Source: Planctomycetota bacterium
Lineage (GTDB): Bacteria > Planctomycetota > UBA11346
Length of the DNA stretch: 35,221 nt
Direction of reading: 5' to 3'
Assembly: GCA_038213805.1 (NCBI GenBank)
Contig: JBBQSO010000057.1
Span: forward strand, 1-35,221
Shown here: positions 17,370-35,159 of the stretch, one piece after another
How positions within the stretch are numbered: the first letter of the stretch is position 1
How the letters are laid out: every line of letters starts with the position of its first letter
The notes under the pieces: model-generated
Seen by the model: only the letters and a program-made list of their open reading frames with translations
Databases searched by the model: none
Told to the model about the DNA's origin: nothing
Program-made: the position numbers and the translations under genes

Positions 17370-18494
17370 ATGCGTCCTCCGGCCCTGTGCATCCTTATCC
17401 TGTCTGCGCTGCTGTTGCTCTCGTGGGCTCCCGCCGCCCCTGCCGCGCAGGCGCCTTCAGCGAGTCTGCTGGGGTGGAACACCATCATTGAACGCCTGCG
17501 TGCCGGCGCCGCCGGACCGTACGCGGTCTACCTCGGCAGTCCCGACAACAAGCTGCCGCGGCTGCTTGCGGTCGGGGCGATTGCCACGCTCGACATCCCG
17601 GTGGTGGTGCTGCGTTCCGGCGATCAGGTGCGCAATCCGATGACCGACCGTCTGGTCGGCGGTGACCGCCTGCAGAATTTCTTCGGCGCCAGCGCCGGCA
17701 CCCTGCTGTTCCTTGATGGCGATGGCATGCCCATCCCGCAGCTCTCGATCCCCCAGGCGATGCATGGCAACGATGCCGAGCTGTTCGCCCTCTATTTCAG
17801 CTACGTCGCTGGCGCCCACTACAAGGCCATGTCGATCGCCGAATACTGCCGTGCCCTGGGCAAGGACCAGGTCGTGCTGCGCGCCCTGCGGCGCGTGAAG
17901 AGTGGTTTCAGCGGCCGCGAATTCGCCGCCGACGAGGCGCTGCCGAAGGCGCGCAACCACGTCAGCGGCGAGGCCGTGGATGCGTGGGCTGATCCAGGCG
18001 TCTTCCATATCTACACCGCCGCGGCGGATGGCCGCGTGTTCCTCGCCCAGGTCAATGAGATCGAGCGCGCCTTCGGGCGCCTCAACCCGCGCTTCACCCT
18101 GATCGTCCCCGAGGGCGAGGAGCCCGATATGGCGCGCCTGCCAGGAGTGCGCTGCGTACTCGCGCATGCCGCGCGCAGCGAACTGCTGCGCCTGGGCGCG
18201 AGTCCGCTGACCATCATCACCGCCGGCGGCCCGGACGCGCACGCCCGCAAGGGTATCCGGCTGGATGGCTTCCAGCCGGCGGATGTGATCGCCAAGCTGG
18301 TTGGGCTGCCGCTCGCCGATCTCGCGCTGGTCGATCGCGACATCCCTTATGGTGAAATGGACGAGGTTGCGGCATCCGCCATCGAGACTGCGGCGCCGCC
18401 GCCCGCAGCCGCTCCCGCCGCAGTCGCGCAGGCGCCCGTACCCGCGCCTGCCGCGATCGTGCCGCCGCTCAGCGCGGAAGGAGCGCAGCCATGA
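17370..18494 (+). CDS. Exported protein, probable tandem thioredoxin-like folds lacking CxxC
   Basis: Signal peptide; TLLFLDGDG...F..YVAGAHYKAMSIAEY resembles the SoxW-type thioredoxin C-terminal half; no CxxC; ATGA-coupled to the next gene. Confidence 0.65.
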   Translation: MRPPALCILILSALLLLSWAPAAPAAQAPSASLLGWNTIIERLRAGAAGPYAVYLGSPDNKLPRLLAVGAIATLDIPVVVLRSGDQVRNPMTDRLVGGDRLQNFFGASAGTLLFLDGDGMPIPQLSIPQAMHGNDAELFALYFSYVAGAHYKAMSIAEYCRALGKDQVVLRALRRVKSGFSGREFAADEALPKARNHVSGEAVDAWADPGVFHIYTAAADGRVFLAQVNEIERAFGRLNPRFTLIVPEGEEPDMARLPGVRCVLAHAARSELLRLGASPLTIITAGGPDAHARKGIRLDGFQPADVIAKLVGLPLADLALVDRDIPYGEMDEVAASAIETAAPPPAAAPAAVAQAPVPAPAAIVPPLSAEGAQP

Positions 18495-20104
18495 GTCTGT
18501 CCGAAAAGTCCGCCGCCATGGCCGGTGGCCCCGTCGTGGCACCCTCCGCCGTCGCCGGCCTCGGCCCGCGCCAGGCGCTTCGGCTCGCCTGCTTCTGGCT
18601 CGGCGGCCTCAGCCTGATCGCGACGGTGGTGCTGTCCTCCGCGCCGGCCACCGGCGTGGTGGCGACACTGGTCGCGGTCGCAGCGATGGGCTATGCGCTG
18701 GTCGGCGCGCCGGCCTGGGAGACCCGGCGCGCGTGGCCGCACGCGCTGGCGGTGCTGCTTGCCGCGCTGGCGGCTTTCGGCCTGTGCGCGAGCCGCTGCG
18801 GCAGCTACGCCGCTTATGCCGAATTCCTCGGCCTGCCCACCGCGGTCGCCGGCATCGTTCTGCACGGTGCGGTGGCGCTGGTCGCGCTGGTGCAGGCGCG
18901 CTACCGTCCGCAGGCCGTGCTGGTCACCGACCTCGCCATCGCGGTGGCCTGCGGCGGATCGCTGTTTTTCGCCACCGTGATGGCGGCCTCCGGGACCTGG
19001 TGCGGCGCGTGCTTCGCCATCCACGCGCTGATGGCCGTGCAGCTCGCTGACCTGGCGGTGGCGACGCGCGGCAGCGCCCGCATCGCGGTGCTGGCCACGG
19101 TGCTGGCCGCGGCCGGCGGCGCGAATGCGCTCTACCACCACCGCGACCTGCCGCCGCTGCGCAACGATCCCGGCGAGCTGCTCGCTTACCTGCGCGGCCT
19201 GTGGAGCGGGGACCTGCCGCCGCAACGCGTCGACCAGGTCAGCGAAGAGGTGCGCGAGGCGCAGCGCGCCGGGCGCGAGTCGGGCGCGCTGCGGGCGGTA
19301 CCAGGCGGCGCTGCGCCGCGCCCCACACCGCCGGCGGAGCGCGGCGCGCGCCCGGCGACCGGCAGGATTCCGGTCGCTGGAGCCACCGACCCGCTGCCGC
19401 CTGCGTCTACAGCGCGGCATGCGGTTCCTGCGCCGGCCGACGGAGAATCGCCAGCGGATTCCACGCCCGTAGCGGCTCGCCTGGAGCGCCCGGTCGCGGC
19501 GGCGGGTGCGCCCGCTGCGGATGCCCCAGCCACGCCGCTTGCACCGGTGTCCGTGCCCACCGCGCGTCCGATCGCGCTCGCCAACCACTGGGGCCAGGCC
19601 AGCGCGCCGGTGACCATGGTCTTCGCTCTCGACATGGGCTGCCCGGTGTGCGCGCAGCAGCTCGGCCAGGTGCTCGAGCTCTCCGACCTGATCAAGGCTG
19701 GGCGATTGCAGGTGCGCTTCCTGATCACCTACCGCAATCAGGCCTCACAGGCCACCGCCTCGCTCGCCTATGCCGCGGGCGTGGTCGGGGAGCGACCGCT
19801 GGTCGAATGTCTGGCCGCCTTCATGCAGCATCAGCGCGACATCGTCGTCACCGCCGATGCGATGACCTTCCTGCCTGCCGACTTCCCACCGCAACTGGCG
19901 ATCGCCACCGTGCGTCAGCACCAGGCGACCATCACCACGCTGATGACCGACGCAGTCAAGCTGAAGGACGCGCTGGGCGCGACCGGCGACCCGGCGATCT
20001 GGCTGATGGTGCCAGGGCAGGCGAAGCCGGCGCGCGAATTCCAGGGACTGACGATGTCGTCGATCATCCGCTTGGCGGCGATGAGCCTGGTGCCAGCGCA
20101 ATAG
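18491..20104 (+). CDS. VKOR-like membrane domain fused through a Pro/Ala linker to a DsbA-like domain
   Basis: CASRC...YAEFLGLP.A..G and WCGACFAIH (VKOR-like four Cys); WGQASAPVTMVFALDMGCPVC (DsbA-like); GDP at the cis-Pro position. Confidence 0.78.
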   Translation: MSLSEKSAAMAGGPVVAPSAVAGLGPRQALRLACFWLGGLSLIATVVLSSAPATGVVATLVAVAAMGYALVGAPAWETRRAWPHALAVLLAALAAFGLCASRCGSYAAYAEFLGLPTAVAGIVLHGAVALVALVQARYRPQAVLVTDLAIAVACGGSLFFATVMAASGTWCGACFAIHALMAVQLADLAVATRGSARIAVLATVLAAAGGANALYHHRDLPPLRNDPGELLAYLRGLWSGDLPPQRVDQVSEEVREAQRAGRESGALRAVPGGAAPRPTPPAERGARPATGRIPVAGATDPLPPASTARHAVPAPADGESPADSTPVAARLERPVAAAGAPAADAPATPLAPVSVPTARPIALANHWGQASAPVTMVFALDMGCPVCAQQLGQVLELSDLIKAGRLQVRFLITYRNQASQATASLAYAAGVVGERPLVECLAAFMQHQRDIVVTADAMTFLPADFPPQLAIATVRQHQATITTLMTDAVKLKDALGATGDPAIWLMVPGQAKPAREFQGLTMSSIIRLAAMSLVPAQ

Positions 20105-20245
20105 GCGGCGGAGTTCGCGTCGGCGGTGCCTGCTCGGCTGCCCGCCGGCGCACCATGAAACAGTGCGCTTCATCTTGCCAGGTTTGCGCCCCGATCCGCG
20201 CCCGCATGATCGGCGTCCTATCCACCTCCCAACCAGGAGCATTCC

Positions 20246-20560
20246 ATGCGTCGTCTCCATCCTCTCCTCATCCTCTGCCTGCTGTCGCTGGCCAGCGGTT
20301 CGGCATTCGCCGAAGTGCCCTCGGGCGCGACCTTCACCGCCGAATCGGGCGTCGCAGGCGGTGTAATGATGACCACCGTCGCAGGCAGCGTGAATTCCAT
20401 CACCGGTCTGCTCATGGGTCCTGGTCTTTACGTGATCATGGCCATCGGCGCCCTGCTCGCGCTTTACGGCTTCGGACGTGGCAACAAGGAGACCCTGTTC
20501 AGCGGCATCGGTCTGTTCGTGCTCGCCGCCATCATCAAGGGCGTGTTCGCCATCCTGTGA
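20246..20560 (+). CDS. Pilin-like protein (TraA/VirB2-like)
   Basis: AGGAG RBS; 104 aa; signal peptide ending SAFA and two hydrophobic helices split by a charged loop (GRGNKE); lies immediately before the TraL-like gene. Confidence 0.65.
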   Translation: MRRLHPLLILCLLSLASGSAFAEVPSGATFTAESGVAGGVMMTTVAGSVNSITGLLMGPGLYVIMAIGALLALYGFGRGNKETLFSGIGLFVLAAIIKGVFAIL

Positions 20561-20566
20561 TCCCCC

Positions 20567-20622
20567 GGACGCCGCCGTGCTGCCGCGCCTTCGTGCGCGA
20601 GCGCGCGGCGGCGTCCTTTCCC
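20567..20622 (+). terminator. Intra-operon hairpin after the pilin gene (attenuator/stabiliser)
   Basis: GGACGCCGCCG/CGGCGGCGTCC 11-bp stem followed by TTTCCC. Confidence 0.6.
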
Positions 20623-20680: not shown

Positions 20681-21301
20681 ATGGCCAAGCCGTTCGAACT
20701 CCCGTGGACGCTCAATGACGAGAACGAATTCGGCATCCCCATGCTGCCGTGGTACGTCACCAACCAGGAGATGGGCCTCGCCGTCCTCGGCACCATTTTC
20801 ACGTATATCATTTGCTCGCCGGTGCTGGGCACCGGCCTGATCAACTTCGCGGCCATGGCGGTCAGCGGGGTGGTGATCATGCATTCCATGATGCGCTACA
20901 AGAACGGCAAGCCGGCGAGCTGGCTGTGGGACCTGCGTCTCGCGCTCGGGATGTTCCCGCTGCAGCGCGGCCTGCTCAAGGTCACGCGCCACGTGCGCTG
21001 GCTGTCCCAGCACCATCTCGCGCGGCCCTCACCATTCCTCACCGGCGTTGGGAAGGTCGGCGAGGATCTCACCATCTCGGCGCCGTGGATGGTGGTGCTG
21101 CCGCCGGTGACGAACTGGGCGCCCTGCTTTCCGCCGCGGCGGCGACGCGTGTTCTCGGCCAAAGCCGCACCGGCCCCGATCTGGTTCCAGGTCGCGAACG
21201 GCTTCGCCAACGTGGTCAACCCGCGCATCCCGGTGACCGTCACCTGGGAGCTCAAGCCAGAACGCACCTTGCCGCCGCCGACCGGCGGAAATCCGCCATG
21301 A
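20681..21301 (+). CDS. TraL/VirB3-like inner membrane protein with C-terminal extension
   Basis: LPWTLNDENEFGIP N-terminal motif, two TM helices, then KNGKPASWL; located between pilin and TraE-like genes. Confidence 0.6.
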   Translation: MAKPFELPWTLNDENEFGIPMLPWYVTNQEMGLAVLGTIFTYIICSPVLGTGLINFAAMAVSGVVIMHSMMRYKNGKPASWLWDLRLALGMFPLQRGLLKVTRHVRWLSQHHLARPSPFLTGVGKVGEDLTISAPWMVVLPPVTNWAPCFPPRRRRVFSAKAAPAPIWFQVANGFANVVNPRIPVTVTWELKPERTLPPPTGGNPP

Positions 21302-21687
21302 ATCAGCGTTACGACTTCTACGCCGACATGCTCGAGACCCACACCGAGATCGGCTACCTGTTGGTGATCGCGATTTCCCTGTTGGCCTTCAATGCCGCCA
21401 TCTCGGCTGTGCTCTGGCGCTGGCCCGGCGACGACGTCTACCTCGTCCCCGGCGTCGAAGGGGGTGGCATGGCCAATGTCACCTGGGGCGCTGCGCCGCC
21501 GCCCATCCGCGAAGCGGAACCGCATGATCCGCTCGAGGGCACGCCCACCATCGATCTGACTCCCGCACCACCCGCGTTGGTTCCGGAAGCGGCCGCTGCG
21601 CCGTCCGCCGCCGCCGCCGATCTGCCTTCGGCCGCGAAGAATTCCGGCACCCCGCCGGCCGCGACCGCCACCAGGCCTGCGCCATGA
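21298..21687 (+). CDS. Small bitopic protein resembling the TraE N-terminus with a Pro/Ala tail
   Basis: ATGA overlaps at both ends; one TM followed by DDVYLVPG. Confidence 0.6.
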   Translation: MNQRYDFYADMLETHTEIGYLLVIAISLLAFNAAISAVLWRWPGDDVYLVPGVEGGGMANVTWGAAPPPIREAEPHDPLEGTPTIDLTPAPPALVPEAAAAPSAAAADLPSAAKNSGTPPAATATRPAP

Positions 21688-22478
21688 ATCCGCCACTCGT
21701 CGTCAGCGAAACTCGGCGTGGGATCGAGGCGCCGTCGCGCGTCCGCGCGGCGCCCGATGCTGCGGCCGAACGCCGGCTGGCCGAGGGCACGCCGCTGGCC
21801 GCGGCCAAGGTCATCCCCTCCAATGCGCCCATGCCGCTGGCCGCGCAACGCGATTTCCGCGGCTGGATCGTGATCGCGATCCTGGTGCAGATCATCATCG
21901 GCATCGCCTTGAGCGTGGCGGTGATCAGCAAAGTCGCGAACCGCACCATCTACTATGCGCCGACCGCCGAGCGCATCGGTTCGAGCACCGCAGTGCGCGA
22001 AGCCACCACTTTCGAGGCGCTGACCACCGCGCAGATGCTGGTCGCGCGCATGGAGACCTACACTCCGGCCAGCGCCAGCACGGTGTGGGGCGTGGTACTG
22101 CCCTTCCTGCATCCCTCGCTGCACGAGAAGACGCGCGCCAACTATGAGGAGATCGCGCGCAAGGCTGAGCGCCTGTGGCAACACCGCGTCGCGGTGCCGC
22201 TCGGCGCGGCGATCGGCGGCCGCAACAACGGCCTGATCACCCTGGCGGTGTTCTACGACAGCATCGAGCTCACTGGGCGCGACGAGGCCAAGCGCGAGCT
22301 CAGCCGGCTCTCGCCCAAGGCCGCCTACCTCGAGTTTGTCATGGACGTGCCGACCCACGAGAACCCGCTCGGTCTGATCATGACCCGGTATCAGTCCTAT
22401 GACAAGGCTGACTGGATATCGCGCGGCTTCCCGGACATGTGGGATTCTTTCCGCAAGCTACCAGAAAAGCGCAGGTGA
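21684..22478 (+). CDS. TraE/VirB8-like protein
   Basis: Single TM, then TIYYAPT, TYTPAS, FLHPSL and a C-terminal ENPLGL motif typical of VirB8-fold proteins. Confidence 0.65.
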   Translation: MNPPLVVSETRRGIEAPSRVRAAPDAAAERRLAEGTPLAAAKVIPSNAPMPLAAQRDFRGWIVIAILVQIIIGIALSVAVISKVANRTIYYAPTAERIGSSTAVREATTFEALTTAQMLVARMETYTPASASTVWGVVLPFLHPSLHEKTRANYEEIARKAERLWQHRVAVPLGAAIGGRNNGLITLAVFYDSIELTGRDEAKRELSRLSPKAAYLEFVMDVPTHENPLGLIMTRYQSYDKADWISRGFPDMWDSFRKLPEKRR

Positions 22479-22481: not shown

Positions 22482-23069
22482 GTGATCTTGCGCCAATACC
22501 GCTCGCTCGGCCTGCTGCCCGAGATCATCACCTTCGTGTTCCTGGTGGTCGCGGTGGTGACCGCCACCGGGGTGCTGTGGCGCATCGTCTGGCGGGATCC
22601 AGTGGTGCTGGTGCCCAATGCGCGCGGTTCCGGGCCGCTGCGGCCAGCGACCGCTGACGACACCTATCTGCGCCAGTTCTGCACCAATTTTCTGATCAAT
22701 TGGACGAGCTGGAACCAGCACTCGTACCAGTTTCGCAAGACGCAGGCGATCAGCCTGATGACCCCGGCGGTGCGCGCGCAATTCACCGAGATGGCGCGGC
22801 GCTCAGGTGAACTGGTCGCCAGCCTGTCGGAAAGCCAGACCTACCACCTCGCCAGCCTTGAGATCGCAGCCGTCGATGTGCGGCAGGAGTTGTGGCAGGC
22901 GCGCTTCGCCGGCGAGATGTTCACCTACTATGGTGGCGTCGGCGGACGACCGGATCCCTACAGCGGGATCCTCCTCCTGCACGCCCTGCATCCCACTCCC
23001 GAGAGCCCGCTCTGTCTCGAGGTGCTCGGTTTCAAGATCGACAAGTCTACCGCATTGGAGCCCCGATGA
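22482..23069 (+). CDS. TraE-like protein
   Basis: GTG start; TM then PVVLVP, DDTYLRQF, LMTP, SQTY and ESPLCL motifs. Confidence 0.65.
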   Translation: MILRQYRSLGLLPEIITFVFLVVAVVTATGVLWRIVWRDPVVLVPNARGSGPLRPATADDTYLRQFCTNFLINWTSWNQHSYQFRKTQAISLMTPAVRAQFTEMARRSGELVASLSESQTYHLASLEIAAVDVRQELWQARFAGEMFTYYGGVGGRPDPYSGILLLHALHPTPESPLCLEVLGFKIDKSTALEPR

Positions 23070-23827
23070 TCCGCCTGCTGACGCTCCTGCTCCTTTTCAC
23101 CGCCGCCGCCCGCGCCCCCGCCGAGACCGTCGACTGGTCGCTCGGCAGGTCGATCGACTGCGCGTTGGCGCCGGCGCTGCCGACGCGTTCGGTGACGCGC
23201 ACCGTGGTCTTCCCTGGTGGCCCGATCAGCGAGGTGCCGTCGTTCTGGAGCGAGGAGCAGCTGTTCGTCAAGATCATCCGCAACACCCTGGTCTTCCAGC
23301 TCCGCGACCCGCTCTTCAGCGGCACCATCCAGGTCTTCGATGACAAGGGCAATCTGTTCCTGCTCAATGTGCGCGCGGCGCGCGGTGGCGAGACCGTCGA
23401 CGACGTGCTGCTGATCCGCCCCCTTGAGACGGCCAGTGGCGCTGCGGCGCCGATGCCCGGCGACTCCGATGGTGCCGTGACCGAAATGATGGCGCACATG
23501 GTAGGTGGCGGACCAAACCCAGCGATCAGTGGATCCCTGGTCACCCATGTGGACGAGCACGGCAAGGTCGTGCCCGGCCGTCGCATCTTCGCTGACGACA
23601 CCCTCACCCTCGAGCTGTTCAAGGTCTACCAGGGTCCCGGCCTGCGTGGCTACGAATGCCTGGTGCGCTATGCGGGCGCGCGCACCGTGCGCCTCGACCA
23701 GCAGCGTCTGTGGTTTCCCGGCGCGCTTGCGGTCTACGCCAGCAACCAGGTGTTCATCAATCCGCAGACCGTTCAGGTCGAGATCCAGCCCAACCAGGCG
23801 ATCCGGGTCTTCTACGTCGCCGAATGA
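23066..23827 (+). CDS. TraK/VirB9-like exported core-complex protein
   Basis: Signal peptide; beta-rich (TRTVVFP, GNLFLLNV, YQGPGLRG, RVFYV); located between TraE-like and TraB-like genes. Confidence 0.6.
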   Translation: MIRLLTLLLLFTAAARAPAETVDWSLGRSIDCALAPALPTRSVTRTVVFPGGPISEVPSFWSEEQLFVKIIRNTLVFQLRDPLFSGTIQVFDDKGNLFLLNVRAARGGETVDDVLLIRPLETASGAAAPMPGDSDGAVTEMMAHMVGGGPNPAISGSLVTHVDEHGKVVPGRRIFADDTLTLELFKVYQGPGLRGYECLVRYAGARTVRLDQQRLWFPGALAVYASNQVFINPQTVQVEIQPNQAIRVFYVAE

Positions 23828-23857: not shown

Positions 23858-26800
23858 ATGTCTGATCCTCTCGATCCCCTGGACCCCGACCGCAATCTGC
23901 CGCCCGCAGGCGGCGGTAGCGCGCCCGACGACGAGGACGGCGACCCGGCCGCCGCGGAGCGCCTGCTCGCGCAGCGCGGCCAGACTGCTGGCCGCGCTGG
24001 CCGGTTCCTGCGCGACGCCGCCAGCACCGCCGCCAAGGAGAAGGACAAGACCGTACTGATCGTCGCCGTGGTCGGCGGCGTGCTGCTGATCGCCATCGTC
24101 GGCATCGCGCTGCTTGCCCGGAAGCAGCAGACCGCTCCGTCCCAGGTGGTCTACACCCCGTCCTTCGACGTGAACATGTCCTCGCAAGAGGAGCTGCGCG
24201 GCTTCACCAAGAAGACCGCGCAGGAAGTCAACGAGATCGACGCCCAGCTCAAGGAACTGAGCGCGACCATGAAGGGCCTGGTCGACCGCCAGGACAAGAC
24301 CGAGGGCTTCGTGCGCGATGCCCTGAAGCAGGCCAGGGAGGACCTCGACCGCGTCGGCAATGAGAAGCTGCGCGCCGCCGAAGAGATCGCCAAGATCGGC
24401 GCCAAGGCCGCCGATCCGCGCACCACCTCCATCCTCAAGGAGTTCCGTGACTCGCTGACCGGCCTCAAGCAGTCGCCGGCCGAAGCCAAGGCGCGCGCAG
24501 CGATGCTGCTGCGCCAGGCCGGGGTGCCCGAGGACCAGATCCGCAACATCCTCGCCGAGGCCGCGCAGCAGGCGGGGCGCATCGCCGTCGGTGACATCGC
24601 CGAGGCGGCCCTCGGCAAGGCCGAGATCGATACCCTGCCGGAGTGGCTGCGACCGCACGTGCCGGGTGTCCGCGACCTGGTCTACGGACTGGCCGCGGCC
24701 CAGGGCCGCTTCTACCCCGACCAGGTGCTTGCCGAGGTCAAGGTCCACCTGCGGGCGCGTGAGCACGCGCGTAGCGCCGCGCTGACCGACGACCTGGTGC
24801 GCCAGGTCGCCACCGTCGCGCGCGTGCGCCGCGAGAATCTCACCCCGGAGATGGAGGACCTGCTGCCCTATCTGGTCACGCTGCGCGACGCGCGCAAACT
24901 CGGGCCCAGTGATCGTCAGGGCATCGCCGACCTGGTCTGGTCGGCGCGCGAGCGCCTGCCGGAAGCCACCAATCCCGGCCAGATGCTGGCGATCTGCCAC
25001 GTTGTGGCGCGCGCCGTCGGCGCGGTCGCGACCAAGCCCGGTGAGGACCTGAGTCGCAAGCCGCTCGACGACGACAGTGCGCGCCTCGCCACCGAGGTGG
25101 TGACCACCGCGGTGCTCAACGCCATCCAGCTGGGCCGCGGCCAGGCCGAGCAGTACGAGATCGCCAGCCGCGCGCTCGCCAACTACCTCGACACCGCGCG
25201 CCTGACCGCCAGCGACGAGCAGAAGAAGCAGGTGGTGCTGCGCGCCATGGCCGCCGCGTCCAAGCGTCAGCAGGCTGACAAGGCCGAGAAGGCCGAGCAG
25301 GCGCCGCCGGCACCGGCGGAGAAGGCCACAGCGGCGCGCCCGCACGGCCCCGACCCGGCGGATCTGCTGTTCTTCGGCCCGCTGCGACTGGACCGCGGTC
25401 AGGCGCAGCGCGCCCTGGTCTTCGCCCTGCCGCTGCTGCTCCAGTCCAATGGCATCGATCCGGCGGGGGTGAAGGGGCCGGCGGCGCTGATCGCTGCCTT
25501 CGAGCAGGTCCCGCGCGTGGTCAGCGAGGCGCTGCCCCCCGCCCTGGGCAAAGCCATGGGCGGCAAGGATTACTTCACCACGGCGATCCCGCAGCTCAGC
25601 TACGCGCTGCGCATGGGCGAGAGCCTCGCGGGCATCCCGCTGACGGTCACGCCGGGCCGGACCGACGAGGACAGCCGCGCGGCGCGGGTCATGCGCGGCG
25701 TGGCGATCGGCGCGGTCTATGGGCCATTCGTGCACGACGAGACCAAGGCCAAGGCCGCGGCCGGCGATGCCCTCGCCGCGGTCGAGGCCGCTCCGCCACT
25801 CACCCCGGCGCTGGCCGCCGACCTCGCGCGTCTGCCCGCTGAGCGTCCGTACGCGGCGATCATCACCGCCTACGACGGCTTCAGGCCGGGCCGCTTCGGT
25901 TACCCCGCGGCGCGCTTCCAGGAGCTCGCCGGCCGCATCGCCCAGCTCACCACCCAGGTGCGCGAGCTGAAGTCCGTGGTCGCCGAACTCTTCCAGTCCG
26001 ACCAGGAAGGCACCTACGAGGAGGACGCCCGACTGCTCATCCCGCTGGCTGTGGCCGCACACGACGACGGGCAGATGCCGCTCAACGATCTGTTCGCGCT
26101 GGTACGCGCCGACCTCCACACCTTCACCGCACTGTTCCTCGCCGAGGGCCGGGTCAGCCGCGAAACCCTGGGCGTGCTCATCCCCAAGTACGCCGCAGCG
26201 ATGGTCGAAGAGTCCGGGGGCGCGACCGCGCTGGTCCAGACCGCCACCGAGATCGTGCCGAGCACCATCCAGGAGATCCACCAGCAGCGCGCACCCGCCA
26301 TCACCGCCGACAACCTGAAAGAGGTCGTGCAGCAGCTGGGCGATGAGGCGCTGCCGCTGGTCGAGCGCAAGCTCGTCCGCCAAGTGGTGGTGGCGCGCGT
26401 CATGCCGCGCATCCGGCGCGGCGGCGCGCTCGCCGACAAGGCCCTGGTGGCGAGCGCCGGCGAGACCGCCATGCGCCGCGCCGTCGAGCTGGTGGCGGCA
26501 CCCTACACGCCGGTGCGCATCGACGGCTGGGCGACGCAGATCACCAACGAATGCCGCGCCATCCTCGCCGGCGGCGAGGCCCAGCCCAACCCGGCGACGG
26601 TCGGCCGTGGGGCCGGCGGCCCAGGCGGGAAAGCCGGCTACTGGCCGGTGCCGACCATGCTCGCCGTCACCGGCGGCGGTCAGCTGGTCGGCACCAGCAC
26701 CTCGCTGATGCGCACCCGCCAGATCATCATTCCGGCCAACACCTATGGCAACGCGCACCTCCAGACCGGCGTCGACGCCGAGATCGGCGGGCGCGGCAAC

Positions 26801-27462: not shown

Positions 27463-28209
27463 ATGCGCACCGCCCTGATCTCCTGCCTGCTCCCCGCCCT
27501 CGCCCTGCTCGCCGGTTGCGGCACCCAGCGCGACGAGGTCCCGGGCAACGTCCGCCCCGGCTCGATCGAGGAGGTCACCGGCCGCGTCGACGGCTTCGGC
27601 AATGGCTCCGCAGATGGCCGCGGCGGGGGCCAGCTCGAGCAGATCGGCGTGGTGCCGATCACCGGCAACGTCAAGCCGGTGATCCCGCTGGTCAAGCCGC
27701 CCGAAGTCATCTCCTTCTACGTCTTCCCGCGCAAGAGCCGCGACGGCATGTCGTTCCGCGACGGCGTGTGGATCCACCGCGTCATCCGCCCCTTCGCCTG
27801 GGGCGTCGATGAGGCGATGCGCAACGACCGCCTCAAGCTCTCCAGCCTGACCAACCTGCGCCTCGACGACAACGGCCAGCTGGTGATCGACCAGGAGAAG
27901 ACCATCGAACCGCCCACCTCCGACGTCCAGGGACTGCGCGACATGGCCCAGCATCTGCCCTGGCGCGCGACCGACGGCGGTCAGCCGCTGTCGCGCACCA
28001 CCGTGGTCTTCCCGAATAGTGGTCAGGCGGTGACGTCGACCGCGCCAGCGGATCGCGCCCCGGCAGTGGTCGGCCCGAACGGGTCGGTCAACATGCAGGA
28101 GATCGAGCGCGCCATGGCCGAGGCCCAGCAGCGCGTGCGCGAGACCCAGCAGCGCCAGCGCAGCGGCAGCTCGGCCGCAGCCATCCCGCCCGCGACGCCG
28201 ACCAAGTAG
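27463..28209 (+). CDS. traV: TraV-like outer-membrane lipoprotein
   Basis: Lipobox LLAGC; PPEVISFYVFP..SRDG....GVWIHRVIRPFAW resembles the TraV motif; lies between traB and traC. Confidence 0.7.
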   Translation: MRTALISCLLPALALLAGCGTQRDEVPGNVRPGSIEEVTGRVDGFGNGSADGRGGGQLEQIGVVPITGNVKPVIPLVKPPEVISFYVFPRKSRDGMSFRDGVWIHRVIRPFAWGVDEAMRNDRLKLSSLTNLRLDDNGQLVIDQEKTIEPPTSDVQGLRDMAQHLPWRATDGGQPLSRTTVVFPNSGQAVTSTAPADRAPAVVGPNGSVNMQEIERAMAEAQQRVRETQQRQRSGSSAAAIPPATPTK

Positions 28210-28229: not shown

Positions 28230-31200
28230 ATGGCAGTCACAGAAAAGAAGATCCTCGGACGCAGCACGCGCGTCGACCTGGTCGACAAGGTGCGCTCCAC
28301 CGACTCGGTCTCCAATTACCTGATGGCCACCTCCTACGACGAGGAGGTCAAGATCTACACCCTCGCCGACCTCTCCGTCGGCGTGCTGCTCGAGATCACC
28401 CCGCTGGCCGCGAGCGTGCTCAGCGACGACGAGCTGCAGACCTACAGCGATTCGATCGCGGTGGCGTTGTCGCGCCTGCCCGAGCACGCCATCATCCAGA
28501 GCCACATCCTGCCCGCCGCCAACGTCGATCAGGATATCGAGAGTTACTACGCGGCCGGTTCGGGCGACGACCATCCGGTGCTGGCCACGCACGAGCGCAT
28601 GGTCGCGGACATGTACCGCCGCTCGGTGTCCAAGCCGCTGTTCGCCTTCCAGTACGGCGAGGGCGGCTTCAAGACCAAGCGCTACCGCGTGCTGCTCAGC
28701 ATCGTCGTGCGCCCGGATGAGATGGTCGGCGGCGGCAAGGCCAGCACCCTCGACTTCCTCAGTTCGCTGGTCGGCCGCATCCGCCGCGGCAGCGGCGTGC
28801 CGGCGATCCGCCGCGCGCCTGCCGAAGAACGCTACCTGACGATGCGCGAGCGCCTCTACAAGCGCCTGCAGGAGACCGCACGCCGCCTCGAGGGCACCCT
28901 GCGCACCAACCACCTGCAGGTGCGACGCCTGCCGCCCACCGAACTGGTGGCGTTGACGCGCATGCTGATGTGGCCCGAGGCGTCGCTCGGTGCCAAGCCG
29001 GAGCATGATCCCTACCAGCAACTCGCCACGCAGATCCCGCTCGGCGACGTCGCGGTTGAATGCTCGAGCGGGTCGGTGCTGTCGGACGGCTGGGTCTACA
29101 AGTCCCTGAGCATGAGTTCGATTCCGCGCTCGACCACGCCCGGCGCCACCACGCTGCCGCAGGCCGCCCTCGGGCTTTTCACCCTGCTCGATTTCATCGG
29201 CGACGGATTCCTGACCGTCTCGGCGCACTGCAAGCCGGTCAACGACGTGCGTAGCTTCCTTGACAAGCGCCGGCGTTTCATCCGCGGCGGGTTCGCCATG
29301 CCCTCCAAGGTCGACCAGCTGCTGCGCGATTGCGATCTGACCTCCTACTTCATCGAGACCGACCGGCGCAAGATGTTCGACGCGCAGATCGTGATCTGCG
29401 TGCGCGGCCGCAACGAGCGCGAGGCCCAGGAGCAGGCCGAAAAGGTGCGCGACAAGGCCGCCGACGTCGGCATCGACTGCCGGGTCGAGCAGCACTACGG
29501 CCCATCGCTGCTCTTCCAGAGCCTGCCCTTCGGCTTCGCTCCGACCCTGCCCGAGGCGCGCCGCCTGTGGTTGATGCCCGACCGCGCGGTCGCCGACTTC
29601 CTGCCGTTGTTCATGCTTTCGCGCGGCACCAAGCGGCCTGCGCTGATGCTGCACAACCGCCTCGGCGAGCCGTTCTTCTTCAACCCCTTCGACTCGCCCA
29701 CCGCGGCGCACTGCGTGATCTGCGGTGAATCGGGCTCGGGCAAGAGCTTCTTCACCAACTACCTGATGTTCTCGGCCCTGCGCAAGGCCGATGCCCAGGT
29801 CTTCGCCATCGACAAGGGACGCAGCTACGCGACCTCGACGGCGATGCTGGGCGAAAAGGGCTCCTACAATAACATGGGGCTGTCGAGCAAGACCTGCATC
29901 AACGCCTTCGCCGGCACGCTTGAGAACGCCTCCGCCTTCCTGCGTCAGTTCATCGCCCACCTCGCCAGCCAGGTCGAGACCGACCGCCTGAACAGCGACC
30001 AGATGGGCATCGTCGACGAATGCATCACGCGCTCCTTCCTGCGCAAACAGCAGACCTTCAGCTGGCGGGACTTCGCCGAGATCCACCAGCGCTGGCCACG
30101 CGGCGCGTGGGTCGACCGGCTGCGCAAGCGCATGGTCATCCGCCCGCTCGACGAGATGCAGCGCAGCGGCATCGACCAGCTCAAGGCCAAGGACAGCGGC
30201 CGTTCACCGGAATTCGAGATCTACACGCGCGCCCTGCTGCGCTCGCGCCGCGTGCTCAACCGCGAGACCCGCCAGCTCATCAAGGAGGAGACCTTCGATG
30301 ACGCCAAGTCCATCGACCAGGAGACCAAGCGCTGGCTCGAGAGCCGCGGCTTCCTGATCGAGGACCTGATCGGGGACGACGGCGCGCGCCGCGCCTGCGT
30401 GCTCTATGTGAACTCCACCCAGGAGCGCGCGCTGGACATGGACGGCTTCGCCTTCGAGCCGCTGCGCGACGTCCTGATCCTCGACGTGGCGCGGCGCGAG
30501 GACCTGGGCGAGCTCGCCGAGGCCGGCGCACGCATCGTCCATCCCCAGGCCTACCTCGACGAGCAGCGCCTGCGCTTCACCGCCGAAGTGCGCGCCGAGC
30601 ACGCCAACGCCGCGCCGGAGGTGGTCGCAGACATTGTCGCCCAGCGCATGTCCGAACTGAGTGCGGTCGCCTATTTCGACAGCCTCGACGGCACTGTGCG
30701 CATGCAGTTCGAGGTGTTTTTCAGCGACCTCATCCGCGAGTTGCAGGAGCACCGCAGCGAAGCGCTCGCCGCGCCGATCGTCAGCCGCCTCGCGGCCTAC
30801 CACGGCAACGGGCCGCTCGCCGGCTTCTTCGATGGCGAGACCCAGTTCCGCCTCGAAGGCAAGAAGCTTTGCACCTTCGAGCTGCAAGAACTCTCCTCCG
30901 CGGGCGAGCACCTGGTCGCCGCGGTGGTCGGCACCCTGCTACAGATGCTGGTGCTGTACTGCCAGAGCGAGCATCTCAAGGGCGGCGGTCCGCGCGCCTA
31001 CCTGAAGTACATCGTGCTCGACGAGTTCTGGGCGTTGCTCGCGGTGCCGATGGTCGCCGATCTGGTCATCAACGGCCTGCGCACGCTGCGCAAGCACAAC
31101 ACTGCGATCGTCTGCATCTCGCAGCTGGTGCGCGACTTCGCCACCACCGAGCGCGGCAAGGTCGTGCTCAGCGCCTCGCAGCACCGCATCCTGCTGCGTC

Positions 31201-31535
31201 AGCCGCCGGACGTCATCGCCGAGCTCGACAAGCACCTCGACTGGTCGGACGAGCAGAAGGCCCTGATGTACACCGTGGTCTCGGCCAAGGGCATGTTCTC
31301 GGAGGCGATCTTCGACATCCCCAATCAGGGCATCTGCGAGGTGGCGCGTTTCGTGCCCACGCCCTACGCCTACTGGATCTTCACCACCGCGCCCGAGGAC
31401 GTGCGTCAGCGCGACCTGCTGCGCAATGAGTTCCGGGCGCGCGGCTATCCCGCCGACGAGGCCCTCGACCGCGCCCTGCAGGACTGCTCAGAGCGTTGGC
31501 CGAACGGCTTCTCGGCTGGCGAGAAGAGGCGCTGA
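28230..31535 (+). CDS. traC: TraC/VirB4 family ATPase
   Basis: F.FNPFD, Walker A HCVICGESGSGKSF, IDKGRSY, CINAF, FFDG, Walker B IVLDEFW and RTLRKHN....ISQ motifs. Confidence 0.92.
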   Translation: MAVTEKKILGRSTRVDLVDKVRSTDSVSNYLMATSYDEEVKIYTLADLSVGVLLEITPLAASVLSDDELQTYSDSIAVALSRLPEHAIIQSHILPAANVDQDIESYYAAGSGDDHPVLATHERMVADMYRRSVSKPLFAFQYGEGGFKTKRYRVLLSIVVRPDEMVGGGKASTLDFLSSLVGRIRRGSGVPAIRRAPAEERYLTMRERLYKRLQETARRLEGTLRTNHLQVRRLPPTELVALTRMLMWPEASLGAKPEHDPYQQLATQIPLGDVAVECSSGSVLSDGWVYKSLSMSSIPRSTTPGATTLPQAALGLFTLLDFIGDGFLTVSAHCKPVNDVRSFLDKRRRFIRGGFAMPSKVDQLLRDCDLTSYFIETDRRKMFDAQIVICVRGRNEREAQEQAEKVRDKAADVGIDCRVEQHYGPSLLFQSLPFGFAPTLPEARRLWLMPDRAVADFLPLFMLSRGTKRPALMLHNRLGEPFFFNPFDSPTAAHCVICGESGSGKSFFTNYLMFSALRKADAQVFAIDKGRSYATSTAMLGEKGSYNNMGLSSKTCINAFAGTLENASAFLRQFIAHLASQVETDRLNSDQMGIVDECITRSFLRKQQTFSWRDFAEIHQRWPRGAWVDRLRKRMVIRPLDEMQRSGIDQLKAKDSGRSPEFEIYTRALLRSRRVLNRETRQLIKEETFDDAKSIDQETKRWLESRGFLIEDLIGDDGARRACVLYVNSTQERALDMDGFAFEPLRDVLILDVARREDLGELAEAGARIVHPQAYLDEQRLRFTAEVRAEHANAAPEVVADIVAQRMSELSAVAYFDSLDGTVRMQFEVFFSDLIRELQEHRSEALAAPIVSRLAAYHGNGPLAGFFDGETQFRLEGKKLCTFELQELSSAGEHLVAAVVGTLLQMLVLYCQSEHLKGGGPRAYLKYIVLDEFWALLAVPMVADLVINGLRTLRKHNTAIVCISQLVRDFATTERGKVVLSASQHRILLRQPPDVIAELDKHLDWSDEQKALMYTVVSAKGMFSEAIFDIPNQGICEVARFVPTPYAYWIFTTAPEDVRQRDLLRNEFRARGYPADEALDRALQDCSERWPNGFSAGEKRR

Positions 31536-32929
31536 TGGCGACGGCGGACCTGCTCACCGCGCTGCCCGACCTGGCTGCGCTGCCCAACCCGCACCTGTTG
31601 GTGCTCGGTGAATGGCGTGGCGACGTCGCCCGGGTGCTCGCGCACCGCCTTGCGCAGCAGCCGGGTGGCGCCGGTCTGGTCGCGATCAGCCGTCAGGAGG
31701 GGGCGGACATCGCCAGCGCGCGCACCGTCGATGGACGCGAGCTCGACCTGCTCGCCGGTCTGGCCGCGGGCAACGACGGGCTGGCCAGCCTGCGCGGTCT
31801 GCTGCTTGACCTTGCCGCGACTGAGTGCGGGCCTGCGGCGCCGCCCGCGGTCGCGGCCTGCCTGGAGCGCCTCGCCAACGCCGCCGCCGGCGCCAACCCG
31901 CAGCCGGTCGCCGGCTTGGCGCTGCTCGCCATGCGCTTCCCGCCCGGCACCGCTCCGGCGCGCGCCGCCGCACTGATCGATGACATGGTCGGCCACGCCG
32001 CCGCAAGCGGACTGCCGGCGCCCCAGGCGCGGCGCGGCCCCTGGTCGCGTGAGGACGCGCGTGCCGCACGCCTCGCACTCGAGCGCGGCGAGCTCGCTGC
32101 GGACGGGTTTGCCCTGCTGGTCGCCGCCCGTGATGCCGAAGACTGGCGCCCCTATGCGGCCGAACTCGTGCCCGACCTCTCGCCCGGGGCGCTCGCCGCC
32201 GAACGCGATCTCGCCGAGACCCGTTTGCGCCGGCAGCCCGAGTACCGCGCCGCGCCCGCAGATGCACTGGCCGCACTCGCCGCGCACCACGTCGAGGCGC
32301 GGATCTGGGAGATCGCCTGGAACCGCGCGCTCGAGGCGCAGGCCACCCCGCTGCCGCTCGGTTCCGAGAACGTGCTGCACGCCCTGGCCGAGGAGCCCGC
32401 GGCGCGGCCGCTCGCCGATCTGTTGCGCGGCATCCTTGGCGGTCGCACACGCCTGCCCACCTGGTGGGACGGCGGCCTGTGGCTGATCGGCGATCCCGGG
32501 CGCCATCCGCTGCGCCTCGCGGTGCTGCTCGATGCTCTGTTCGAGCGCGCCGCGCTGCCCGCCGTGGTCGGCAGGCCCAAGGTGCTGATGGTCGATGGCG
32601 AATCGGCGCTGGCCGCGCCGGCGCCGCGCGCCGCGCTCGAGCGCCTGCTGCGCGGCGGGCGTAAGCACCACCTCTCCGTGGTGCTGCTGCTCGGCGACCA
32701 GGAACCGCCTGGCGGCGCCATCGGCGAGCTCTGCGCCAACCGCCTGGTCGACGCGCGCAGCGTGGCCCGCCTGCCCGCGCGCCTGCGCCCCACGGCCGCC
32801 GTCGACCATGCCGCGCCACGCGGCTGGTTGACCACCAGCCAGACCTCGCACCCCGCGCCACTCGGCGCGTGGTTCACCTCCGACGAGGTCGCCAGCGGCG
32901 ATCGTCTGCTCACGGGAGCCCGCGCATGA
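31535..32929 (+). CDS. Degenerate VirB4/HerA-FtsK-like P-loop protein (pseudo-ATPase)
   Basis: TGATG-coupled to traC. HLLVLGEWRGDV (Walker A position), LVAIS, KVLMVDGESALA (Walker B position) and LRGGRKHHLSVVLL are collinear with the TraC motifs. Confidence 0.65.
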   Translation: MATADLLTALPDLAALPNPHLLVLGEWRGDVARVLAHRLAQQPGGAGLVAISRQEGADIASARTVDGRELDLLAGLAAGNDGLASLRGLLLDLAATECGPAAPPAVAACLERLANAAAGANPQPVAGLALLAMRFPPGTAPARAAALIDDMVGHAAASGLPAPQARRGPWSREDARAARLALERGELAADGFALLVAARDAEDWRPYAAELVPDLSPGALAAERDLAETRLRRQPEYRAAPADALAALAAHHVEARIWEIAWNRALEAQATPLPLGSENVLHALAEEPAARPLADLLRGILGGRTRLPTWWDGGLWLIGDPGRHPLRLAVLLDALFERAALPAVVGRPKVLMVDGESALAAPAPRAALERLLRGGRKHHLSVVLLLGDQEPPGGAIGELCANRLVDARSVARLPARLRPTAAVDHAAPRGWLTTSQTSHPAPLGAWFTSDEVASGDRLLTGARA

Positions 32930-34023
32930 CCAGTTCCTCCGCCTCCACCGCCCGCGTCACGGCCGGCATCGCCGCCCTCGCCCTGCTCGGGGGCTGTGGC
33001 GACGAGCGCCACGCGCGCGACGATCTGCCGCTCACTCCGCAGCAGGAGCACGATGTGTTCCTCGCCTCCGACAATCTCGGCCCCGACACCGACGTCATCG
33101 TCCTCGCCAACGTGCCCAAGGCGCGTTACGAGAACGGCGCCATCGTCCTGACCGGCGGCAAGCAGCTCTACGTGGTGCAGCCGCACGCCTGGCGGACCTA
33201 CACCGGCACCGCACTCAGCGCCGAGGAGGCCCAGCGCGAGGTGGCGCGCGCTGCGCGTCTCGAAGTCGCGATCACGGACATCGCCGCGGCCGCCAGCGAG
33301 CTCAAGCAGTACCTCGAGGGCCGCTCCAGCGAGGCCGCGCACGCCAGCGCGCGCCTCCAGGAGGAGGACGCCACCAGGCGCAGCGGCCAGGAGGTCCAGC
33401 AGCAGCGACTGCTCGAGGAGGCGGCGCGCGTGCACCGCGCGCGCGACCAGGAAATCGGTCGCATCACCAATGCACGCGACGACCAGGTCGCCGCGGTCTA
33501 CAAGGAGGGCGGCAACGAGATCGAGGGGATCACCGCCACCTTCGGCCGTCAGGTCGACGAACTCAACCAGCGCTGGGCGAAGGTCGAGGCCGACGTCCTG
33601 GCGGCCTATCGTGCCGCCGGCGAGAAGCTCACGGTCAGCCAGAAGCTCGAGGTCGAGATCGCGCACTCCAAGAACATGGATCAGACCTACCTGCTCAAGC
33701 AGGAGGAGCTGCACGAGCGCCAGCGGCAGGAACTGAGCGAAAGCAACCGCAAGCGCATCGCCGAACTGCACCGCGACCGTGATGCCGAGGTCGCCAAGGC
33801 GCGCACCGCGTCGGCGGCGCGCATCGATGACGCGCGCCGCCTCTACGAGGCCAAGGCCGAGCGCATCCGCCGCGCCGCCGACGATCAGCTGGCGGCGGTG
33901 CGGGCGCGCGAGGACAACGCGGCGGCCGCGGGCGGCAACGCTGCCTCCACGGCGCCCGCCGCCGCACCGACGCCGGCACCGTCCGTCACGCCCGCCACGG
34001 GGGATGGCAATGGCGGTAAATAG
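32926..34023 (+). CDS. Lipoprotein with long coiled coil
   Basis: ATGA overlap; lipobox LLGGC; about 200-aa E/Q/R/A-rich helical region. Confidence 0.8.
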   Translation: MTSSSASTARVTAGIAALALLGGCGDERHARDDLPLTPQQEHDVFLASDNLGPDTDVIVLANVPKARYENGAIVLTGGKQLYVVQPHAWRTYTGTALSAEEAQREVARAARLEVAITDIAAAASELKQYLEGRSSEAAHASARLQEEDATRRSGQEVQQQRLLEEAARVHRARDQEIGRITNARDDQVAAVYKEGGNEIEGITATFGRQVDELNQRWAKVEADVLAAYRAAGEKLTVSQKLEVEIAHSKNMDQTYLLKQEELHERQRQELSESNRKRIAELHRDRDAEVAKARTASAARIDDARRLYEAKAERIRRAADDQLAAVRAREDNAAAAGGNAASTAPAAAPTPAPSVTPATGDGNGGK

Positions 34024-35074
34024 GTTCCCAGCCGTCCTCGCCGGACTCGGCCTGCTCGCGCTGGCCGGCTGCGCGCAACGCTACGACCGCGTGGCGGTGG
34101 TCGGACTGGTCGTGCCCGTGCGCACGGCGCCACCGGCCCGTGGGACCACGCTGCAGCAGCTGCCACCGCTCGAGGGCTTGCCGGTCGCGCCCGATACCAG
34201 CGACGGCGCCGTGCTGGTCGAGGTCGACCAGCAGCGCTTCTGGCAGGACCATGGCTACATCCTTCCTGCCTGGCAGGCGCCGCATGCGGCAGCGCCGGAC
34301 ACCCGTCTTGATGAGTTGCGCGATCTGAGCGCGAGCATCGCCGCGATCCGCGTGCTGCTTGATGGCGTTTTCGCCGCGTCGTCGCCGGGTGGCGCGGACG
34401 CTGGACCGGCCGCGACCGGAGCCCCTGGCGCCGGCGCCGATGCCGGCCGGCGGCGCGCCAGCCTGATGCTCAGCCCCGAGGACTGGAGCGGCCTGACCAG
34501 CCGCCTCGCCACCCTGGCCGCGCGCATCGGTGCGCTGAATAGCGCCGCACGCCAGGACGATGGCCTGGGCGGCAGCGGCGGTGCGCACGACGGCGAGGCC
34601 ATCCACCAGCGCCTCGCCGAGGCGCTGTGGGCCGGTCTCGAGCCGCTCGCGCTCGGTCTCGCAGCGCAGGCCAACGACCTCGGCACCGATGGGGTCTTCG
34701 CTGCGTTGCGCCGGCACCCTGCGCACGGCGCCGCGATGGAGGTCCAGCTTGAGCAGGTACGCGCGGTCGCGCAGCTGCTCGCGCAGACCGTGCGCCAGCG
34801 CGAATCCGGCCAGGTGGTCACGGCGGTGCGCCTGCTGGCGCGCGCGCTCGACGGGCTCGCGGCCTCGCCATTGTCCGCGCTCGCCTTCGGCGGCCCGCAG
34901 CCGGGCGAGCTGGCGATCACCCGCGCCGAACGCGATCAGTCACGTGCGCGGCTGGTCGGGCTGCGCCAGGCGTTGGCCCTGCTCACGGCGCGCTGGGCCG
35001 CGAACAATGCCGCGCTGCTGCAGCAGCAGCCGCTGCCGACGCTGGTCTGGCAGCCGGCTGCCAAGGTGGACTGA
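34010..35074 (+). CDS. Helical lipoprotein of unknown function, last gene of the operon
   Basis: MAVNRFPAVLAGLGLLALAGC lipobox; overlaps the previous stop. Confidence 0.75.
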   Translation: MAVNRFPAVLAGLGLLALAGCAQRYDRVAVVGLVVPVRTAPPARGTTLQQLPPLEGLPVAPDTSDGAVLVEVDQQRFWQDHGYILPAWQAPHAAAPDTRLDELRDLSASIAAIRVLLDGVFAASSPGGADAGPAATGAPGAGADAGRRRASLMLSPEDWSGLTSRLATLAARIGALNSAARQDDGLGGSGGAHDGEAIHQRLAEALWAGLEPLALGLAAQANDLGTDGVFAALRRHPAHGAAMEVQLEQVRAVAQLLAQTVRQRESGQVVTAVRLLARALDGLAASPLSALAFGGPQPGELAITRAERDQSRARLVGLRQALALLTARWAANNAALLQQQPLPTLVWQPAAKVD

Positions 35075-35097
35075 GCTCGGCCTGCGGTAGGATGCAC

Positions 35098-35159
35098 GAC
35101 GCATCCGTGCCGCCGTCCGCGTACCCGGATGGCGCGGTTTCGCACGGATGCGTTTTCCC
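35098..35159 (+). terminator. Nested hairpin closing the T4SS-like operon
   Basis: CGCATCCGTGC/GCACGGATGCG outer stem with inner CGCCGTCC/GGATGGCG, followed by TTTT. Confidence 0.6.

Follow-up and report, generated by a model that had tools for sequence, protein, structure and literature searches.

Can the core of an F-like type IV secretion system (T4SS) serve a bacterium as a working machine when the genes for DNA transfer are not seen beside it? The question is raised by a cluster of 14 genes in the right half of a 35,221-nucleotide (nt) stretch of DNA (the window) from a member of the Planctomycetota (contig JBBQSO010000057.1 of assembly GCA_038213805.1). The first-pass annotation of the window had described the cluster as a divergent, 'core-only' F-type apparatus that lacks mobility genes and could have been domesticated for another role. 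The reading that we favor, with moderate confidence, is that of a working but strongly diverged F-like T4SS core, a module for a pilus and envelope channel, without relaxase, type IV coupling protein (T4CP) or F mating-pair proteins in the DNA seen. The role of such a module is most likely independent of a T4CP, either as a contact or adhesion pilus or in the export or uptake of a periplasmic substrate, and a complete conjugation apparatus is not favored.

At a G+C content of about 70%, long spurious open reading frames (ORFs) are common in both strands of the window. Genes were called from the G+C content at third codon positions (GC3), a codon-usage frame plot trained on clear genes, and conservation in a related locus. 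Examples of the spurious ORFs expected at this base composition are one of 1298 amino acids (aa; 22958-26854, - strand) that lies antisense to g9, the largest gene of the cluster, and several of 400-700 aa; all score poorly for codon usage and find no match. The cluster itself resolves into 14 genes, g1 to g14, all on the + strand and spanning positions 17370-35074, along with two candidate RNA hairpins:

g1, 17370..18494, + strand: 374-aa secreted protein with a signal-like N-terminal helix
g2, 18491..20104, + strand: predicted disulfide-forming module that joins a VKOR-like membrane domain to a thioredoxin domain of the DsbA type
g3, 20246..20560, + strand: VirB2/TraA-type pilin candidate, 104 aa, so named from features and position only
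Hairpin after the pilin gene, 20567..20616, + strand: candidate attenuator or mRNA stabilizer
g4, 20681..21301, + strand: TraL/VirB3-like protein, 206 aa, with weak family matches
g5, 21298..21687, + strand: small bitopic membrane protein with one transmembrane segment and a Pro/Ala-rich tail
g6, 21684..22478, + strand: bitopic membrane protein, 264 aa, with one transmembrane segment
g7, 22482..23069, + strand: VirB8/TraE-like bitopic protein with one N-terminal transmembrane segment
g8, 23066..23827, + strand: TraK/VirB9-like periplasmic protein
g9, 23858..27382, + strand: giant TraB/VirB10-like protein, 1174 aa
g10, 27463..28209, + strand: TraV-like lipoprotein
g11, 28230..31535, + strand: TraC/VirB4 ATPase, 1101 aa
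g12, 31535..32929, + strand: predicted TraC-derived pseudo-ATPase, 464 aa
g13, 32926..34023, + strand: lipoprotein with a long charged helical region
g14, 34004..35074, + strand: Ala-rich lipoprotein
End hairpin, 35098..35154, + strand: weak candidate terminator, 24 nt past g14

Seven of the 13 junctions are overlaps (g1/g2, g4/g5, g5/g6, g7/g8, g11/g12, g12/g13 and g13/g14) and, with the 3-nt spacing of g6/g7, eight of the 13 neighbors overlap or are separated by no more than 3 nt. The wider gaps flank the pilin gene g3 (141 and 120 nt) or separate g8 from g9 (30 nt), g9 from g10 (80 nt) and g10 from g11 (20 nt). The description of 14 co-oriented, mostly translationally coupled genes is thus borne out by the ORF list, the frame plot and the refinement of start codons. 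The order, with the pilin (g3) followed by TraL (g4), g5 and g6, TraE (g7), TraK (g8), TraB (g9), TraV (g10) and TraC (g11), is that of the F type of mating-pair formation (MPF-F), and it is the same in the related locus.

This relative (L001), the single related genome locus available for comparison, belongs to a Planctomycetota metagenome-assembled genome (contig DASPLE010000183.1) and keeps g1-g11, g13 and g14, that is, 13 of the 14 genes, intact and in the same order, at 39-76% identity (76% for TraC). In the g11 ATPase, Walker A (GESGSGKS, G499-S506) and Walker B (LDEFW, D931 and E932) are invariant in nine of the nine TraC-clade sequences. The intactness and synteny of the 13 genes, together with these invariant motifs, support a functional core. 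As for the synteny in relatives that had been put forward as a check on the first-pass annotation, gene order is indeed kept in L001, but this is one genome, and no flank is common to both loci. The ratio of non-synonymous to synonymous substitutions between the window and L001 was rejected as evidence because GC3 of about 0.9 compresses the synonymous component.

Among the part identities proposed earlier, TraC, TraB/VirB10 and the VKOR-DsbA fusion hold. The g11 protein matches TraC_F_IV (PF11130) over residues 28-435 with 85.2 bits (cutoff 28.1; E = 6e-24) and P-loop_TraG above cutoff (E = 5e-15), as well as the VirB4 structure 4ag5 and TrwK in PDB. Its match to TIGR02746, with an E-value of 1.7e-68, reaches 231 bits versus a cutoff of 567, which indicates a distant TraC rather than an equivalog. 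Compared with annotated plasmid TraC, about 220 extra residues lie between Walker A and Walker B (about 561-852). The g9 protein contains a TrbI/VirB10 domain at residues 958-1153 (58 bits, cutoff 35; E = 1.4e-15), matches the TraB model NF010289 (E = 1.3e-6) and also touches TIGR03752. It starts with a transmembrane segment at residues 66-84, followed by a region of about 870 aa (~85-950) rich in Ala, Leu, Arg and Glu, and then the TrbI domain; residues 954-1148 alone align to residues 237-438 of an annotated 448-aa TraB. About 700 residues are present in addition to those of the 448-aa protein between the membrane anchor and TrbI, and g9 is 2.6 times as long as the usual VirB10. The long region is conserved in L001, where g9 is 53% identical over its full length, and might, as a speculation, reflect a wide periplasm.

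The identities of TraK, the VirB8/TraE-like g7, TraL and TraV are weaker. The g8 protein, 63% identical in L001, matches TraK_C with 25 bits (cutoff 28.5; E = 2.1e-5), and g7 matches VirB8 with 23.1 bits (cutoff 23.2; E = 7.6e-5) and TraE with 17.9 bits (cutoff 24.8; E = 2.2e-3). For g4, which consists of two adjacent hydrophobic segments and an extension of about 100 aa and is 60% identical in L001 over the full length, the matches are weak throughout: TIGR03750 with E = 0.0044, DUF3487 with E = 0.015 (0.019 for the orthologue in L001) and, as the best match in an 18-protein reference set, traL with E = 0.07. The g10 protein, encoded between the TraB and TraC genes, carries a conserved lipobox (LLAGC) and has no Pfam match; phmmer relates it to the annotated TraV of the reference set (E = 1.1e-3), with the motif P..V..(W/Y)V.P...G...W.V aligned. 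The pilin g3 and the lipoproteins g13 and g14 are recognized by features only, and the label 'TraE-like' is not supported for g5 and g6: g5, conserved in L001, has no family match in the Pfam and NCBIfam searches, and g6, 58% identical there, reaches TraE only at E = 0.097, while its reading as a VirB8 paralogue was rejected on an hhalign probability of 0.2% for the comparison with g7. Searches of PDB sequences with shallow profiles of g7, g8, g9 and g10 found nothing meaningful, and a PHROGs scan was uninformative.

The gene directly after TraC, g12, shows clear signs of a real protein that has lost catalysis. Its coding potential is + 0.28 vs - 0.08 bits/codon, and an exhaustive HMMER search among 1.84 billion representatives retrieves 12 relatives of similar length, a family in which, down to 20-26% identity, the RxGRK motif is invariant. 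Ten family members cover the N-terminus, and in all of them the NPHLLV strand is followed by something other than GK[ST]; the Walker B position of g12 reads VDGE where TraC reads LDEF (DE replaced by DG). An AlphaFold2 model from the family alignment (pLDDT 82.7) finds HerA, FtsK, EccC and TrwB chains with Foldseek, at E-values down to 2.7e-4 and TM-scores of only 0.3-0.37; the language-model look-alikes carry TrwB_AAD_bind, AAA_10 and DUF87, and the g12 profile retrieves only HerA from PDB (E = 0.28-0.67). The link to TraC, for which plain BLASTP gives nothing, is visible only by profile-profile comparison, in which hhalign aligns g12 residues 194-385 with residues 749-963 of the clade TraC (probability 87.8%, E = 3.3e-6). 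The alignment to TraC and the loss of Walker A point to a superfamily pseudo-enzyme rather than a T4CP, and g12 is, judging from these comparisons, not a coupling protein but an inactive paralogue of the TraC encoded in this same system. The 'pseudo-ATPase' of the first-pass annotation is accordingly kept and refined to a TraC-derived protein in which the lysine of Walker A and the glutamate of Walker B are missing. Part of the TraC insertion is recognizable in g12, so that the duplication appears to postdate the insertion. In L001, g12 is absent, and g13 begins 28 nt after TraC.

At the opposite end of the operon, g2 matches Thioredoxin_4 with 23.8 bits (cutoff 23.2; E = 5.7e-5) and VKOR with 21.7 bits (below the cutoff of 27.5; E = 2.4e-4), and its orthologue in L001 matches the same pair of families. 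VKOR proteins are defined by a loop cysteine pair plus a CxxC motif, joined here by a fused thioredoxin-like CxxC domain. The g2 protein has about six hydrophobic segments, and its three cysteine motifs, CxxxC (loop pair), WCGxC (membrane CxxC) and GCPxC (CPxC), are all kept in both orthologues; these features firmly predict a VKOR-thioredoxin fusion of the type that replaces DsbB and DsbA. The preceding g1 has a hydrophobic N-terminus and a C-terminal half 58% identical in L001, with no Pfam or NCBIfam match even at E = 10, and its AlphaFold2 model, from an alignment of two sequences, has a pLDDT of 36; neither result supports the label 'Trx-like' of the first-pass annotation. The candidate pilin g3, in which two hydrophobic helices accompany a signal peptide, has no family match in Pfam or NCBIfam either; it is 58% identical in L001, and the hydrophobic core is strongly conserved. 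The gene is followed by a GC-rich hairpin of 22 bp at 20567-20616 and then UUUCCC (fold of 20555-20685, -71.5 kcal/mol, z = -3.46), and L001 has a hairpin of different sequence at the same post-pilin position (~2377-2420, z = -2.87). This conservation of position after the pilin gene in both genomes fits the need for excess pilin, and the hairpin, as an attenuator or mRNA stabilizer, could adjust how much pilin is made relative to the machinery. The two lipoproteins at the 3' end of the operon, g13 (lipobox LLGGC, LTAC in L001; 41-42% identical there) and g14 (LALAGC, LAAC in L001; 39-44% identical), have no significant match in Pfam or NCBIfam.

The sequence itself shows which genes are present, how they are ordered, that they are intact and conserved, and the state of their motifs; from what is established for the homologous parts of F and VirB systems, we infer the following assembly and functions. 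The outer-membrane core would consist of g8 (TraK/VirB9-like), the TraV-like lipoprotein g10 and the C-terminal barrel domain of g9, with g9 anchored in the inner membrane and its helical region of ~870 aa reaching across the periplasm. As the only active ATPase, g11 would dock on g4 and g7, probably with g5 and g6, and pull the g3 pilin from the membrane into a pilus or stalk, and g2, perhaps with g1, would provide periplasmic disulfide bonds. The g13 and g14 proteins would be lineage-specific lipoproteins that decorate the complex, and g12 an optional, catalytically inactive paralogue of TraC, perhaps a member or a regulator of the TraC assembly. Such a machine is likely to work without recruitment of cytoplasmic substrates because no coupling protein is encoded in either visible neighborhood.

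This absence is found wherever the two loci can be followed. No relaxase, T4CP, integrase, transposase or TraW, TraU, TraN, TraF, TraH or TraG is detected by Pfam (E <= 1e-4) in 149 six-frame window frames of at least 110 aa, nor are these families present in 6 further long window frames scanned separately. In L001, relaxase, T4CP, integrase and TraW/U/N/F/H/G are missing from 17 ORFs over the 8 kb past g14, and no mobility or accessory family appears at E <= 1 in the refined set of seven genes, h1 to h7, that follow g14 in this locus, a view that extends 10 kb past TraC. By phmmer, annotated TrbC/TraW, TraU and TraN give nothing below E = 0.1; highly diverged analogues of TraW, TraU, TrbC, TraF, TraH and TraN may exist. 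Within the window and the downstream DNA of L001, the earlier statement that a relaxase, a TraD-type coupling protein and TraW/U/N/H/G are not recognizable therefore holds. The same is true of the ordinary left side and the lack of a composition shift: the left neighbor of the operon is an RRM_1 gene, no integrase is found, the window contains no tRNA and no Rfam match, the left flank shares no repeat of at least 10 nt with the last 160 nt on the right (the right border lies beyond the window), and the GC3 of the operon (0.78-0.93) resembles that of the upstream genes (0.80-0.91). In L001, h7 is followed by an AraC-type regulator and an alpha-L-rhamnosidase. The ordinary flanks, with RRM, MsrA/B, DoxX and NDH2 genes on the left in the window and the AraC and rhamnosidase genes on the right in L001, speak for the favored reading.

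Several observations weigh against this reading. The window ends 147 nt past g14, and the L001 operon does not stop at g14 but runs on with h1-h7 (15336-20464), seven co-oriented, mostly overlapping genes with no Pfam match and no homologue in the window. 'Core-only' is thus in part an effect of the truncated window; what holds is the F-like content and order of the core and the lack of visible mobility genes. Nor does the end hairpin (35098-35154, -46.4 kcal/mol, followed by UUUU) settle the matter: it exists, as had been noted, but its z-score is only -2.06, modest against shuffled sequences, it is not called by a terminator scan and it has no counterpart in L001. A run of about 15 C (35183-35198) with G-rich flanks, 25 nt before the window end, is the likely cause of the assembly break and hence of the missing downstream context. 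Among the additional genes of L001, h2 has a marginal SNase match (E = 0.08), h3 (16444-17403) encodes a putative secreted beta-barrel ending in AWVF, and h4 (17403-18110) resembles, by sequence and predicted structure, a DtrJ/DUF4400-like membrane protein, a family tied to DNA-transfer modules. For h4, PF14348 is present in every one of 30 language-model look-alikes (score 0.95, 224/256 features), the structure compares to the DtrJ/DUF4400 type with TM-scores of 0.57/0.63 versus only 0.35 for a TrbL/VirB6 look-alike, and phmmer relates it to the annotated DUF4400 protein of the 18-protein set at E = 0.002, with no PF14348 match at E <= 1. Homologue searches with h7 and h4 retrieve the proteins themselves and one and two close relatives, respectively, on contigs of 1.7-3 kb. 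Furthermore, no VirB6/TraG-like polytopic protein is found, the VKOR domain of g2 being the sole polytopic protein in the window operon, which suggests that the machine has further parts, encoded elsewhere, beyond those visible here. A novel relaxase or divergent accessory proteins could also hide among g1, g5, g6, g13, g14 and h1-h7; such hidden parts are conceivable because the family models barely detect several of the core parts.

The distribution of the lineage adds to these points. A word-indexed search of 5.8 billion proteins gives 14 matches for TraC, ten with 44-94% identity, nearly all metagenomic, and four with 23-31% identity; among plasmid TraCs, the best of 1570 matches is no more than 29% identical to g11. 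In a pattern scan seeded from the clade alignment across 185,579 species (one genome per species), in which the window's own genome did not come up, L001 is the sole confirmed locus. The lineage is extremely rare and patchy, and such rarity fits a mobile element; the first-pass annotation itself had counted patchy presence among the marks of an ordinary mobile element, and in this respect the observation speaks against the interpretation offered there.

The foremost alternative is that the operon is the mating-pair-formation cluster of a rare, split conjugative element, an integrative and conjugative element (ICE) or an integrated plasmid, which has its T4CP, relaxase and analogues of TraG, TraH, TraF, TraW, TraU and TraN elsewhere and still moves DNA. 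The very patchy distribution, the abrupt end of the window, the DtrJ/DUF4400-like h4 inside the L001 operon and the absence of a VirB6/TraG analogue from the visible cluster are all expected of such an element, and g12 and h1-h7, which vary between the two loci, are typical accessory content of mobile elements. F-like systems of the MobH type do lie in split blocks, and in an annotated F-like plasmid traD and traL flank a DUF4400 gene with a MobH relaxase alongside, and traC is preceded by a thioredoxin-fold gene, an arrangement that makes a MobH-type F-like ancestry of the locus plausible. However, there is no T4CP, relaxase or integrase in the 17 kb upstream in the window or in the 10 kb past TraC in L001, both visible flanks consist of ordinary genes, no composition shift, tRNA or repeat marks the operon, and the DtrJ-like gene of L001 adjoins no traD or traI. 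On balance, the split element is a serious contender that we nevertheless consider somewhat improbable. A bolder proposal, and an unlikely one, is that of a ninth MPF class that branches near F and is specific to Planctomycetota-like bacteria, with a VirB10 of 1174 aa for an enlarged periplasm, its own VKOR-DsbA, additional lipoproteins, one working ATPase next to the TraC-derived pseudo-ATPase and no T4CP, which would serve not conjugation but the transport of a periplasmic cargo or the uptake of DNA or macromolecules. Finally, a conjugative element in decay, stripped of its DNA-processing and accessory genes and no longer working, might account for the many absent canonical parts, the dead ATPase g12 and the fast evolution of g13 and g14 (39-44% identity) but is highly improbable, given that all 14 of the 14 ORFs are intact, that 13 keep their order and coupling where TraC is only 76% identical, that the catalytic motifs of TraC are unchanged in its nine relatives, and that the conserved motif of the 12-member g12 family betrays selection on the pseudo-enzyme.

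How does a functional F-like core of this kind compare with known systems? The closest layout is that of the F-like MobH/TraD/DUF4400 type, exemplified by a Halomonas sp. plasmid (NZ_CP130702.1), which we take to be SXT/R391-IncA/C-like. The two share the block traL-traE-traK-traB(TrbI)-traV, the TraA pilin and, immediately ahead of traC, a thioredoxin-fold gene, and TraC of this type is the best family match of g11; a DUF4400-like gene is present in L001. In contrast to the plasmid, the genes here form a single operon with the pilin first, TraC is no more than 29% identical to the plasmid TraCs and about 220 residues longer, TraB has 1174 aa compared with 448, and MobH, TraD, the S26 peptidase, TrbC/TraW, TraU and TraN are not visible, whereas the VKOR-DsbA fusion, the TraC-derived pseudo-ATPase and the two lipoproteins are additions. 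A Myxococcus plasmid with a high-GC TraC was also compared, and its layout is not similar.

T4SSs without a relaxase (MOBless), including those of the MPF-F type, are a published category according to the relevant passages of Guglielmini 2011 and 2013 (PMC3158045, PMC3548315). As characterized there, these systems resemble the present locus in having VirB4 amid type-specific genes where the context looks chromosomal and neither a relaxase nor an integrase lies close by; they differ in that the category is defined on neighborhoods of tens of genes in complete genomes, compared with a composite of 17 kb (window) and 10 kb (L001) here. The second of these articles names T4SSs that work without a coupling protein, namely Bordetella Ptl, Brucella VirB and the Helicobacter pylori ComB system for DNA uptake (PMC3548315). 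These are precedents for VirB4-driven machines that lack a T4CP, with substrates that reach the periplasm by another route or DNA that is imported; unlike the operon described here, they are of the VirB/MPF-T type and have no TraK, TraV or TraC F-like parts and no dedicated VKOR-DsbA.

According to passages of PMC4027160, the core of the MPF-G type (ICEHin1056/ICEclc) is homologous to TraK, TraB, TraV, TraL and TraE, and the F-specific profiles TraW, TraU, TrbC, TraF, TraH and TraN are set out. A likeness to MPF-G is seen in the best NCBIfam match of g4, the ICE family TIGR03750, and in the TIGR03752 match of g9. However, g11 scores 81 bits on the ICE-type model compared with 231 on the F-type model, and TraW/U/F/H homologues were not found. 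The T4SS clusters of environmental chlamydiae include genes of the TraU/N/F/H/G type, none of which is seen here. These chlamydiae, members of the same Planctomycetes-Verrucomicrobia-Chlamydiae (PVC) superphylum, carry T4SSs described in a passage of PMC8242063 as conjugative-type, and on that description alone they are alike as conjugative-type T4SSs of PVC bacteria. The term 'Planctomyc' is absent from the main texts of three articles on T4SSs (PMC12857230, PMC3548315, PMC3158045), and no such system is described among the matches listed for a literature search on Planctomycetes, type IV secretion and TraC. The locus is therefore not categorically new, MOBless F-type systems being known; it is a very divergent variant in a phylum without a described T4SS in the literature searched.

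The classification and mechanism of T4SSs are based almost entirely on Proteobacteria, Firmicutes and Bacteroidetes, and the range of designs known for them would grow with an F-like core that is intact in a planctomycete-like genome. The set of parts is unusual, with a VirB10 2.6 times as long as usual, a disulfide oxidase of its own, a paralogue of the motor ATPase that is conserved although catalytically dead, and no visible T4CP, relaxase or F accessory proteins, and would amount to a natural experiment on the parts that are indispensable for the assembly of a pilus or channel. Should conjugation prove to be its function, the system would give access to gene transfer in Planctomycetota, for which such openings are few; otherwise it would represent exaptation within the F type. 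Experimental demonstrations of exaptation were, as of 2013, confined to the MPF-T and MPF-I types, as stated in a passage of PMC3548315.

The 17 kb upstream of the operon encode a Golvesin_C/Big_9 protein, hydrolases, DoxX, an NDH2-like oxidoreductase, MsrB, MsrA and the RRM protein. The first of these is a 950-aa surface protein with Golvesin_C, Big_9 and cadherin-like domains (780-3632, - strand), adjoined by a 920-aa ORF without Pfam match (3947-6709, - strand; GC3 0.89). The region 10768-15141 is a redox and repair neighborhood that consists of an NDH2-like pyridine nucleotide-disulfide oxidoreductase, DoxX (12546-13310, - strand), MsrB (14018-14656) and MsrA (to 15141), and the ORFs of 454 and 937 aa in this region are over-extended owing to the high G+C content.

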